Notes: generated by a model not told the origin, from the sequence alone. A DNA stretch of 32,000 nucleotides from Candidatus Baldrarchaeota archaeon (GCA_019056805.1 DXJG01000009.1:239473-271472), one strand, 5' to 3'; numbered from the stretch's first letter, positions 24,369-28,950 are shown. Translations and numbers: made by a program.

Positions 24369-24923
24369 ATGAGTGACGAGAAAATATATTACCGTGTGGA
24401 GAATATAGTGGCTAGCGTGGTTCTGGAGGACAGAATAGATCTGGAAAAAGTAGCTAACGCCTATCATAATGTCGAATACGATCCAGAACAATTCCCAGGA
24501 CTAGTATTCAGACTTCAAAACCCTAAAGCCGCGGTTCTCGTATTTAACACAGGAAAAATGGTTGTGACAGGATTAAAAAGAGAAGAAGAAGCAGAAGTAG
24601 TAGTCAACAAAGTAATAGAGAAAATAAGAAAAGCAGGAGTACCGATTAAAAGCAAACCACAAATACAAATACAAAACATAGTTTCTTCAGGAAGCATAGG
24701 CGCCGAAATTGATCTTGAATTAGCTTCAATAACCCTCGACGACTCCCTTTACGAACCAGAACAATTCCCAGGGTTAATATATAGAATGAAAGATCCAAAT
24801 GTAGTTTTCCTACTTTTCAGCAGCGGCAAAATAGTATGTACAGGCGCCAAAAAGGAGACAGATGTTGCAAGAGCAGTAAAGAAGCTTGCAAAAGAACTAA
24901 GAGAACTGGGTCTAGTCACCTAA
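24369..24923 (+). CDS. tbp: TATA-box binding protein
   Basis: Two direct repeats: ENIVAS...YDPEQFPGLVFRLQNPKAAVLVFNTGKMVVTG and QNIVSS...YEPEQFPGLIYRMKDPNVVFLLFSSGKIVCTGAK. Confidence 0.98.
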   Translation: MSDEKIYYRVENIVASVVLEDRIDLEKVANAYHNVEYDPEQFPGLVFRLQNPKAAVLVFNTGKMVVTGLKREEEAEVVVNKVIEKIRKAGVPIKSKPQIQIQNIVSSGSIGAEIDLELASITLDDSLYEPEQFPGLIYRMKDPNVVFLLFSSGKIVCTGAKKETDVARAVKKLAKELRELGLVT

Positions 24924-25026: not shown

Positions 25027-25611
25027 CTGAAATTTAAATGCTTAATGTGTGGTGAATGTTGCCGAGATAAAAAAATGATCGTAACAATCACCCATATCGA
25101 CATAAGTAGAATAGCTTCCCATCTAAATCTGGATGCTCAAGGCATCTTAAAACACGTAGCATTTTACCAAGTAGTAGGAAGAGGTTATGAAAAACTCGTA
25201 ACACCCCCTGTTACAACAACAAGAGGCATAGCTTATCTAGGCCTTTTAAAACTACAAGATGGTTCTTGCATTTTTCTCTCAAAAGATAATAAATGTTCTA
25301 TATATCCTGCTAGACCTTCTTCATGCCGCAACTTTCCTTTTACTTTTCAGTTGAAAAACAGATGGCTATATCAAGGTATATCGGTAAGAGCAAAGGAATA
25401 TTGTAAAGGTCTCGGAAAGGGTAGAAAAATAAGTGAAAAGGAATTAGAGAAGCAAGGCATTAAAACAATTAAAGAACTTAAGGAATATGAAAATCTAGTC
25501 TCAAAATGGAACGACCTAGCATTAAAAGGACAAATAAACCCTACCCCACAACTATTTATCGAATATTTACTTTCAAGAGGATTTCTAAACCTAAGCTTTT
25601 CTTTTCTTTAA
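25027..25611 (+). CDS. YkgJ-family cysteine-cluster protein (probable CTG start)
   Basis: (M)KFKCLMCGECC...CIFL...KCSIYPARPSSCRNFPF...C.GLG. The first Cys of CxxCGxCC lies upstream of the ORF-track ATG 25045; CTG 25027 follows an in-frame TAA and a GGGGG SD. Confidence 0.85.
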   Translation: MKFKCLMCGECCRDKKMIVTITHIDISRIASHLNLDAQGILKHVAFYQVVGRGYEKLVTPPVTTTRGIAYLGLLKLQDGSCIFLSKDNKCSIYPARPSSCRNFPFTFQLKNRWLYQGISVRAKEYCKGLGKGRKISEKELEKQGIKTIKELKEYENLVSKWNDLALKGQINPTPQLFIEYLLSRGFLNLSFSFL

Positions 25612-25778: not shown

Positions 25779-25790
25779 TTGGCGCCCCGC
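25779..25790 (+). promoter_or_regulatory. Candidate E2F-type site TTGGCGCCCCGC upstream of the E2F-like gene
   Basis: GC-rich GGCGCC core in an AT-rich intergenic region, about 40 nt downstream of a TTTTATAT TATA-like box (25732-39). Confidence 0.3.
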
Positions 25791-25909
25791 ACATACCGAA
25801 ATTTGAAGTGAAACATTACAATTAGTTGAATAATCACATTAAACCAAAAAATATATGTGTATCGGAGAGGTATACAAAAGTAATATCTCATTATTGTGGG
25901 GGGTACCAC

Positions 25910-26434
25910 GTGCGTCTTATGGAGATGACGAAGCGTGCTGTCGAGATTCTCCAGAAAGCCGGTGAACAAGGCTGTCTGAACATAGAATTAGCGTGGAAAC
26001 TCGGCGTGTCAAGAAGAAGAATATATGATATTATCGCTGTACTGAGGGCAGTGGATTTAATAAAAACAGTCAAAGAAAGAAGAGGAACAAGAATAATATG
26101 GAAAACGCCACTGCATTTCCAAGAGGAAAAGGAAAGACTTCTCCAAGAATATAGAAAATTAAAGAAAGAAAAATATTCTCTTGAAAAACAAATTACAATA
26201 TTAGAAGAACAGCTTGAAGCCTTAAAAGAAAAGAAAGTTGTACAAATATCTGAAACTGTAAAATTTAACGTAAGAAAAATAAGAATAAAGAGCGAATCTG
26301 GTTTTTTGAGAATTTCAGGTAGAGGTATGGAAGCCATAGTAGAATCTTCAAGCCCTGGCATAATCGTTCAACCCTTACCCATCTACATTCCAGTTAACTC
26401 AACAAAACCGATGGAAAAAACTAAGGAAAGATAA
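25910..26434 (+). CDS. E2F/DP-family winged-helix transcription factor-like protein with coiled coil
   Basis: L...TKR..E.L........L....A..L.V..RRIYDI..VL....LI.......I.W matches the E2F DNA-binding domain pattern, followed by a heptad coiled coil and a beta-rich tail. Likely GTG start at 25910 (GGGGGG SD); the ORF track starts at TTG 25826. Confidence 0.85.
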   Translation: MRLMEMTKRAVEILQKAGEQGCLNIELAWKLGVSRRRIYDIIAVLRAVDLIKTVKERRGTRIIWKTPLHFQEEKERLLQEYRKLKKEKYSLEKQITILEEQLEALKEKKVVQISETVKFNVRKIRIKSESGFLRISGRGMEAIVESSSPGIIVQPLPIYIPVNSTKPMEKTKER

Positions 26435-26979: not shown

Positions 26980-27543
26980 TCAAATATTCACACCCTCACC
27001 GCCAAGGAAGCCCCATGGTTTTAAATCATACTTTCTTCCATGTTTATAGTTGATATAGACTGGGACTTTCTCTACGTTAGCTATAGTTATAGGTACTAAA
27101 TAATACTCTTTTAAATTTAGTTTTACAAAGAATATCAAAACTTCTTCTATGTTGAAATACTTTAGAAAACTCAATATGATAGTTAAATAAGGTTTTATTA
27201 ATACTTGTAGTTACATCAATAGCAAATACTTTGTCATCTTTACGAGCAAGAGCATCAAAGTAGAAATTCTTTGAAGGTCTAAAGATATCAGTAAATCCCA
27301 TTTTTGGTAATACATTACTTATAACCAATCTCTCAGCCATAGTTGAGCAATTCTCTACTCCTTCCTCCTTCCATTGCTTCATCTTTTCTAAATATTTTTG
27401 TTTTCTATACGTTCTTACCTTCTCTAGATGCTTACTTCCCTATTTTCTTTTGTATTCCTTAACTTTATCTGGATTTTTCTTCTGCCACTCTCTAGACTCT
27501 CTTATTCTCCTATCTCTATGCTTTCTGTAGTACTTTTGGTCAT
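26980..27543 (-). pseudogene. Decayed PD-(D/E)XK-type endonuclease with basic helical N-terminus
   Basis: Segments join into MTK/KYYRKHRDRRIRESREWQKKNPDKVKEYKRK*GSKH...AERLVISNVLPKMGF...FDALARKDDKVFAIDVTTS.../FLKYFNIEEVLIFFVK...; this needs a frameshift near 27535, an in-frame TAG (about 27440) and a frameshift near 27175. Confidence 0.65.
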
Positions 27544-27589: not shown

Positions 27590-28950
27590 AGTTTTTTTGG
27601 GAAGAGTTGGCGGAAAGTTATTTATAGTTTCGGCTACAACACTATATCGGGTGCTGAGAGTGGATAGAGTCGTTGTTAAGGCTCTGAAGCTCAATCTACT
27701 CCCTCTGTCAAAGATGAAAGAACACTTGTTAGCTGAATTATTCAACTCCGTCCTTCGCTGCTGTAACGATGTTTTAGCAATTGCCAAATCTAAATCTCCT
27801 AAAAACTTCGCCATTCTACATAACACTTCCTATCCTATTATTAAGCAAAAATATGACTTACATTCTCAAATCCTCGTTGACTGCATCCACCAAGCTTGGG
27901 AAAATCGAAAGACAAATCCGGATAAGTTCAAGCAAATTCCTGTCAGATTCAACGTCCCTCGTAGTGGAAAATTTGGTGAAACTAAGCGTGGTAATCCTGT
28001 TGTGATTATTGCATCGTTTAACGGAAATGGAAGAATTGCCCTTCCAATCAAGCAAGATGGAGCCTATAAGAGATTTGTTAAACACATTAAAAATGGCTGG
28101 AAATGCACCCAATTTAGACTGCACAAGCAGAATGACAATTATGTCGTTATCGCTAATCTGAGAAAGAAGTTTAGGGTTAAACAAAAGTATAAGACTGTTG
28201 TAGGGGTTGATGTTAACAGCGGTAGTTTCGCTGTCACAGTTTTGAGAGGTGACAGGAGAGTTTTGAAGCAACTTTATCTGGGACAAGACATCTGGCACAA
28301 ACAATGGAAGTTCATGAAGAGAAGAAGCAAACTTCAAAGTTACGCAGACAAGGGGAGTAAGAGGGCACGGCGTGCCCTCAAAAGAATGAAGCACGATGAG
28401 AGAAACTTCGTCAATACGAGAATATGGCAAGTAAGCCATGAAATTGTTGAAATAGCTTTGAGATACGATGCTGTAATTGCTATTGAGAGGCTTAAGAACC
28501 TCAGAAAGAGGAATGGAAAGGGCAGAAAACCTAAGACTGCAAACAGAAAGATTCATCGCATTCCATTCGCCAAGTTCAGAATGACAATACGATCTGTTGC
28601 GTGGCAGAATGGAATTGAAGTTATTGAAGTTCGAGCTACAAAGACTTCGCAGAGATGTCCAAAGTGTGGTTATACGAGTAAGAAAAACTGGGTCTTCTTC
28701 AATGGAAAGCGCAAGTTGTTCAAATGCAGGAAATGCGGTTATGAGGCAAATGTGGATAGGACTGCCTCCCGAAACATTGCAACTCTGGCTCTGGAGCGGG
28801 GTTTGACTTCTTTTGAAACCACTCTCAGCACCCAGCCCCAGAGTTCCAGAGCCGGCGGGGATGTCAGCCCCCGTGTCCGGCTCGATGACGGAAGATGGTA
28901 TCCTCAACCCTCCGAGAGCAAACTCCCGTCTTAAGACGGGAGAGGCTGAC
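27590..28950 (+). mobile_element. tnpB-only IS200/IS605-family element (IS1341-like); left end approximate
   Basis: tnpB plus right-end palindrome CTCCCGTCTTAAGACGGGAG (28923-42) ending GGCTGAC; own BRE/TATA (GGAAAGTTATTTATA, ~27612-26); no tnpA. Confidence 0.8.
27660..28934 (+). CDS. tnpB: TnpB RNA-guided endonuclease
   Basis: VKALKLNL N-terminus, RuvC-I VVGVDVN, RuvC-II IAIERL, Zn finger CPKCG...CRKCG, RuvC-III NVDRTASRNI. Start placed at GTG 27660. Confidence 0.95.
   Translation: MDRVVVKALKLNLLPLSKMKEHLLAELFNSVLRCCNDVLAIAKSKSPKNFAILHNTSYPIIKQKYDLHSQILVDCIHQAWENRKTNPDKFKQIPVRFNVPRSGKFGETKRGNPVVIIASFNGNGRIALPIKQDGAYKRFVKHIKNGWKCTQFRLHKQNDNYVVIANLRKKFRVKQKYKTVVGVDVNSGSFAVTVLRGDRRVLKQLYLGQDIWHKQWKFMKRRSKLQSYADKGSKRARRALKRMKHDERNFVNTRIWQVSHEIVEIALRYDAVIAIERLKNLRKRNGKGRKPKTANRKIHRIPFAKFRMTIRSVAWQNGIEVIEVRATKTSQRCPKCGYTSKKNWVFFNGKRKLFKCRKCGYEANVDRTASRNIATLALERGLTSFETTLSTQPQSSRAGGDVSPRVRLDDGRWYPQPSESKLPS

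Follow-up and report, generated by a model that had tools for sequence, protein, structure and literature searches.

Does a short archaeal gene encode a genuine member of the E2F/DP family, and if it does, how would its product dimerise and which DNA would it read? E2F/DP controls S-phase entry in eukaryotes, and its origin bears on how the eukaryotic cell cycle arose. The gene lies at 25910-26434 on the + strand of the window, that is, of the whole 32,000-nt stretch of Candidatus Baldrarchaeota archaeon DNA that was analysed; the ORF list and the translation gave a product of 174 aa with a GTG start and a stop codon at 26432-26434. A preliminary description of the window had proposed an E2F/DP-like transcription factor here, and both the reading frame and the peptide strings quoted in it were found just as it had given them. 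The GTG at 25910 was also found to be the homologous start, as translation of the relatives begins at this aligned position too, with TTG, GTG or ATG; the family shares the N-terminus M-[KR]-L-x-[ED]-[LM]-[AT]. The open frame spans 25826-26434 (+) and so reaches 5′ of this start, and its translation there looks conserved; the upstream extension was read as conserved DNA and not as protein, because no upstream start codon was common to the relatives and substitutions 5′ of 25910 were not concentrated at third codon positions. An ORF on the opposite strand (25891-26361) is probably spurious, because all homology was found on the + strand.

The N-terminal part of the protein was assigned to a winged helix-turn-helix DNA-binding domain (25916-26101, + strand; residues 3-64) from PF02319, the AF2 model and the profile, with H1, H2 and H3 followed by a two-strand wing ending at W64. 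In the AF2 model of the whole protein (mean pLDDT 85.8), this domain comprised helices at residues 3-17, 24-31 and 35-47 and strands at 51-56 and 59-64, with block-mean pLDDT of about 86-94. The HMM comparison with Pfam E2F_TDP (PF02319), which had been suggested as a check, gave 35.8-36.9 bits against a curated cut-off of 25.7, and the resemblance is therefore beyond chance. PF02319 was the sole Pfam family above its own cut-off in the window protein and exceeded the curated cut-off in 26 of 26 Asgard homologues too, and an NCBIfam search returned sub-threshold noise only. The RRIYD recognition motif (R36 R37 I38 Y39 D40; 26015-26029, + strand) was read from the sequence and aligned with the RRIYD of E2F4 and E2F8 and the RRVYD of DP2; R36, R37, Y39 and D40, together with W64, were invariant in the alignment of 26 Asgard homologues (A2). 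When the A2 profile was run against all PDB sequences, E2F8 (E 3e-12), E2F4 (4e-8) and DP2 (2e-3) were retrieved, and the next match stood at E ~0.5. The window protein is a genuine E2F/DP-family member whose winged helix carries an intact RRxYD, as had been claimed for it.

The same fold could also be that of an archaeal winged-helix regulator of a generic kind (TrmB, MarR or ArsR), with the RRxYD resemblance arising by chance. Archaeal TrmB/TrmBL2 and MarR-type proteins share the general fold with the window protein and often continue into a coiled-coil helix, and when the whole model was compared with the PDB by Foldseek, MarR, TrmBL2 and ArsR-type chains came first (E ~3e-3), with no E2F chain among the top 50. 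A weak Pfam TrmB match was likewise obtained in 26 of 26 homologues; its best E value was 5e-6, however, against 6.9e-11 for PF02319 across the same proteins, and the Pfam scores of these generic families stayed below their cut-offs. RRxYD was not seen in the generic matches, whereas it is invariant with W64 in the Asgard family, and the Asgard sequence profile did not recover the generic families but matched E2F/DP alone in the PDB. Against AlphaFold/Swiss-Prot, by contrast with the PDB ranking, Foldseek ranks 1-26 were all E2F1-6, efl-2, plant E2FA-C or DP, in alignments that covered query residues 2-174 (for example, E2F1 residues 131-320) at 20-25% identity. Among 1.8 billion representative proteins, the profile retrieved ~40 Asgard-type clusters and, directly after them, eukaryotic E2Fs, namely proteins with Pfam E2F_TDP plus E2F_CC-MB. 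On the point that best matches to generic families would speak against an E2F, the sequence profile and AlphaFold/Swiss-Prot thus favoured E2F/DP, and only the PDB Foldseek ranking went the other way; a generic regulator is strongly disfavoured and, in our estimate, very improbable.

Downstream of the winged helix, a coiled coil was located at residues 67-107 (26108-26230, + strand), which the AF2 models render as one long helix (block-mean pLDDT ~86-96). F70, L77, L84, L91, L98 and L105 share one heptad position, giving leucine at every seventh residue five times, and 9 of the 12 a/d positions in this register were hydrophobic. The heptads noted in the preliminary description hence correspond to a true leucine zipper, by the leucine register and the single predicted helix. 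The zipper was followed by a four-strand beta domain (residues 118-156; 26261-26377, + strand) with AF2 strands at 123-128, 133-138, 141-146 and 151-156 and the family motif F-N..L.IR....V..G.E..vE[ST]..PG.iV.P. Most Asgard homologues had both parts, the HMM covering their full length, and a few homologues were without the zipper yet had the beta domain. The zipper was also the fastest-evolving part of the E2F-like protein (26% identity with L004/L005). The protein ends 18 residues past the beta domain, and no C-terminal transactivation or pocket-protein-binding tail was found in these residues, in agreement with the earlier statement that no Rb-binding tail is visible.

The beta-rich tail of the preliminary description was thus borne out as four predicted strands; its identification with the marked box was not robust, with PF16421 unmatched and profile and fold evidence that was collinear and weak. 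Pfam E2F_CC-MB (PF16421) gave no match at E <= 10 in the 26 homologues among the families listed, and none in the genome. When the Asgard CC+beta alignment (A3), which leaves out the winged helix, was compared by hhalign with nine eukaryotic CC-MB segments (A4), 87 columns aligned collinearly at 84% probability (E 7e-6), against 0.5% in the reversed control; the coiled-coil and beta parts scored separately and in register (15.5 and 16.7), and the four beta strands aligned one-to-one with the last four marked-box strands. With an 84-sequence eukaryotic alignment the probability was 29%, for the coiled coil only, and beta-only against marked-box-only comparisons gave 7% (9 eukaryotic sequences) and 0.4% (84). 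A model of CC+beta only (pLDDT 88) found 2aze_B, the E2F1 CC-MB chain, as its best Foldseek match among 350,542 PDB chains, at E 0.5, and 5tuv, 5tuu and 2aze_A were also in the top 44 with E values of just 0.5-6; VIA-align superposed it on 2aze_B with Z 4.4 at an rmsd of 14.8 A. The wide VIA-align search with this model was discarded as uninformative, its list being full of single long helices. Against AlphaFold/Swiss-Prot, no significant E2F match of CC+beta was obtained by Foldseek (E2FB rank 12, E = 4), and the beta-domain HMM gave ~0 bits on eukaryotic E2Fs, with several of the best local matches on the 'TLIAIKAP' strand. In several true E2Fs, the HMMER alignments of the Asgard profile continued across the CC-MB region.

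These results have to be weighed between two views of the C-terminal half. In one, an E2F-like DNA-binding domain has been joined to an Asgard-specific oligomerisation or sensing half unrelated to the eukaryotic CC-MB, and the common order of parts would be convergent or trivial, since an added helix and small domain are found in many winged-helix regulators. Eme et al. (2023) published this view, and it agrees with the unmatched PF16421 and PF08781 in the 26 homologues and the genome, the low beta-only probabilities, the empty beta-domain HMM, the non-significant AlphaFold/Swiss-Prot search and the large rmsd to 2aze_B. It accounts less well for the 84% CC+beta alignment with its low reversed control, the 2aze_B chain at the head of the PDB list with further CC-MB chains below it, the HMMER alignments that continue through CC-MB, and the one-to-one pairing of the strands. 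We hold an Asgard-specific C-terminal half to have slightly less than an even chance, and homology of the beta domain to the E2F/DP marked box is plausible but unproven.

The host of the gene is an Asgard archaeon, probably one of the Baldrarchaeia, and homologues of the window protein were found in other Asgard archaea. Close and more distant ones numbered 19, and the nearest named among them carried Baldrarchaeia/Baldrarchaeota labels at 51-86% identity, with one Helarchaeota protein at 36%. Of 400 Asgard genomes, 136 had a PF02319 match above cut-off, and 40 of 85 genera had a match when counted at E <= 0.001; the Asgard E2F-like gene was usually single-copy, with ORFs of 120-260 aa, and some large families were without any. 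The window genome (1.92 Mb, 91% complete) held one PF02319 locus, which upholds the earlier remark that no second paralogue is visible. A search of this genome for partners, which had been recommended, gave no credible DP, the only PF08781 match being a 22-aa chance match at E 0.24, and no match to RB_A (PF01858).

The earlier statement that E2F-like domains had been reported in Asgard genomes proved correct. E2F/DP homologues were described across most Asgard groups and correspond to arCOG02749; their base-contacting residues were conserved, eukaryote-like motifs were predicted for them, and they were said to be without a dimerisation domain (Eme et al., 2023: Nature 618:992, Suppl. 4.1.5 and ESP tables). 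A 2024 review, 'The Archaeal Cell Cycle' (PMC7617429), also states that Asgard genomes have E2F homologues. The Asgard E2F/DP family is thus already published, and what is new here is the conservation of the zipper and beta domain and the invariant upstream site described below. The window protein resembles the catalogued homologues, which are small proteins of genes that are usually single-copy, in its PF02319 winged helix and in the conservation of its base-contacting residues. It differs from the description of Eme et al. (2023) in the zipper and conserved beta domain that follow the winged helix in most homologues and, further, in the invariant E2F-type site upstream of the gene here; contrary to the wording of that paper, a zipper of the dimerisation type is predicted to be present by the structural models.

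Compared with eukaryotic E2F1-6 (PF02319 plus PF16421; 1CF7, 2AZE, 5TUU, 5TUV), the window protein has the RRxYD winged helix, the coiled coil and the small beta domain in the same order. It is just 174 aa long, however, with no N-terminal arm and no transactivation or Rb-binding tail, PF16421 is unmatched in it, neither a DP partner nor Rb was found in its genome, and it is presumably a homodimer and not a heterodimer. The atypical E2F7/E2F8 type (4YO2) supplied the best PDB sequence match of the Asgard profile (E 3e-12). E2F7 and E2F8 work without DP, and the archaeal protein is likened to them in that respect; those proteins, by contrast, have two tandem winged helices per chain, in place of the single one followed by a zipper in the archaeal protein.

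The DNA upstream of the gene was aligned for eight loci from three sub-lineages (A7), which were grouped as the window and L089; L004, L005 and L084; and L009, L090 and L091. Among the 229 aligned upstream columns, TTGGCGCC (25779-25786) was the only invariant run of more than 5 nt, and we consider it a candidate E2F-type operator. The distance from the beginning of its GGCGCC core to the start codon is 129 nt, and an imperfect TGTG...CACA dyad flanks the element; the flanks were 40-44% identical between groups, and the naive chance of such a run was ~3e-6. In the lineage of L009, L090 and L091, the element reads TTGGCGCCAA, a perfect palindrome. The E2F consensus is TTTSGCGCSAAA, and both TTGGCGCC(AA) and TTGGCGCCAA fit it. 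Beyond these relatives, GGCGCC was found 22 nt upstream of the homologue in another family (L038), and GGCGCG 23 nt upstream in a further genus. In most other Asgard lineages, the 350 nt before the E2F-like gene contained no SGCGCS, and autoregulation through TTGGCGCC may therefore be lineage-specific.

Between TTGGCGCC and the start codon, a conserved block (25836-25909, + strand) can be read as a core promoter plus leader. It contains a putative BRE/TATA-like element AAACCAAAAAATATATG (25841-25857, + strand), a possible leader hairpin (25865-25889, + strand) and a putative G-rich ribosome-binding-like GGGGGGT (25898-25904, + strand), and TTGGCGCC lies ~65 nt upstream of the TATA-like box. 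The block was near-identical in the window, L004, L005, L034, L084 and L089, whose E2F-like proteins are only ~50% identical, and the ~150 nt before the start were far better conserved than the protein, and better than its coding sequence. With L004/L005, the protein shared 49-50% identity overall (winged helix 69%, beta domain 54%), while the syntenic neighbour proteins were 74-97% identical with those of the same loci. The closest relatives conserve the entire 150-nt upstream block; the footprint therefore partly reflects shared ancestry, and the L009 group alone offers an independent comparison. The upstream block was also considered as a structured RNA, which was not supported: Rfam gave no RNA in it, and RNAalifold found 1 compensatory pair with a covariation term of -0.56 kcal/mol.

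TTGGCGCC might also be bound by another factor, or be part of a promoter or leader element or of a small RNA with a GC palindrome. Such a role would agree with the strong conservation of the surrounding 150 nt in close relatives, the distance of the site from the TATA-like box, the missing further conserved copies in the genome and the absence of the motif upstream of the homologue in most Asgard lineages. On the other hand, TTGGCGCCAA is all that the diverged L009/L090/L091 group has conserved of this region, the motif matches SGCGCS, the E2F/DP core, and lies next to the gene for the genome's sole RRxYD protein, and the empty Rfam search with its single covarying pair argues against an RNA. 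We regard binding by another factor, or a structural role of this kind, as possible though doubtful, and a site for the E2F-like protein itself is preferred.

A wider regulon was not found in the window genome. GGCGCC occurred there in 86 copies, 15 of them intergenic and about half of these at tRNA 3′ ends, with no enrichment at promoters or in intergenic DNA; the genes beside the non-tRNA sites were mixed (CBS, MazG, Orc1/Cdc6, RHH, PAC2 and radical SAM). The copy 575 nt upstream of orc1/cdc6 was set aside as a chance occurrence, because G006, a genome of the same genus with a 93% identical Cdc6, lacks it. The MazG-CBS intergenic element TTTTGGCGCC was dropped as well, as it was not conserved in G006 or G007. 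In genome G000, the 670-nt intergenic region before orc1/cdc6 (contig C6:60746-61415; L040, L045), which carries one GGCGCC that is not conserved in G006 of the same genus, is probably a replication origin. Copies of TTGGCGCCAA in G100 did not qualify as a regulon either; two of the three lay inside ORFs, none had the extended palindrome, and they were not promoter-like.

A separate observation concerns orc1/cdc6 in family f12, where the upstream regions of 14 genomes (L069-L082, A6) share an invariant [CG]GCGCCAA[TA]TGTGAAC. In several of these genomes the element reads TTTCGCGCCAAA or TTTTGGCGCCAA, the textbook E2F site. It is located about 125-165 nt upstream of orc1/cdc6, between a classical origin-recognition box (TTCCAGTGGAAA..AAAGGGG) and a BRE/TATA-like box, within a palindrome of ~28 bp. 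The f12 element may just as well be bound by Orc1 or by a different factor.

The gene neighbourhood offered one candidate for a partner. A gene for a CxxCxxCC or YkgJ-type cysteine-cluster protein (Pfam PF03692) is located at 25045-25611 on the + strand, and at least four Asgard families have a gene of this type beside the E2F-like one. Three arrangements occur: the two genes share a strand, with the YkgJ-type gene lying either upstream or downstream, or they are divergent. The linkage was seen in the window, L004, L005, L007, L013, L018, L019, L023, L031, L034, L035 and L089. This recurrent adjacency suggests a functional link, in which the YkgJ-type protein may be a partner or a co-regulated target. 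The order common to the Baldr-type relatives was Alba, a small ORF, TBP, YkgJ/CxxCxxCC, the E2F-like gene, a cyclophilin-like gene, radical SAM and Trm112. The TBP gene (24369-24923, + strand) stands two genes upstream of the E2F-like gene, and its product was 96-97% identical between Baldr-type genomes. In the window, a TnpB-like gene (27597-28934, + strand; Cas12f1-like TNB domain, RuvC-like) and an ORF of 101 aa with no match in Pfam (27077-27382, - strand) sit between the cyclophilin-like and radical-SAM genes. The pair looks like a mobile-element insertion specific to the window genome, because the cyclophilin-like and radical-SAM genes are direct neighbours in the Baldr-type relatives L004, L005 and L089.

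Taken with the candidate operator, the architecture of the protein leads to a main reading, to which we give a probability of about 0.6: the window protein would be an Asgard E2F/DP-family homodimer that forms through its zipper, reads an SGCGCS palindrome and autoregulates through TTGGCGCC. The zipper, possibly helped by the beta domain, would most likely hold two chains in a parallel homodimer, because the search of the genome yielded one E2F/DP gene only; a probable homodimer had also been proposed in the preliminary description. In the structure of E2F4-DP2 on DNA (1CF7), E2F and DP each read one half-site of CGCGCG. In the archaeal homodimer, the two RRxYD helices would correspondingly take the two halves of GGCGCC, the palindromic SGCGCS core. 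Since TTGGCGCC is the single invariant footprint upstream of its own gene, the homodimer would probably regulate its own transcription from this site, and the position of the site ~65 nt upstream of the TATA-like box fits an upstream activator better than a repressor. A cell-cycle role of the window protein would be speculation.

A broader and distinctly unlikely proposal is that the Asgard proteins are complete proto-E2Fs. In that case, CC-MB would descend from the zipper plus beta domain, against the published statement that such a module is lacking, the homodimer would read a TTTSGCGCSAAA-type palindrome and autoregulate, and the protein would act in at least one family at the orc1/cdc6 origin-promoter, at its invariant palindrome of E2F consensus. 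The E2F ancestor named in the preliminary description is an evolutionary inference of this kind. If the proposal were true, the link of E2F to replication licensing would predate eukaryotes. For the family as a whole, it would matter if it were shown that an archaeal protein already had a dimerisation module and read the same GC-core palindrome; the value of the present finding is moderate and lies in the handle that it may give on the DNA specificity and the oligomeric state of a pre-eukaryotic E2F.
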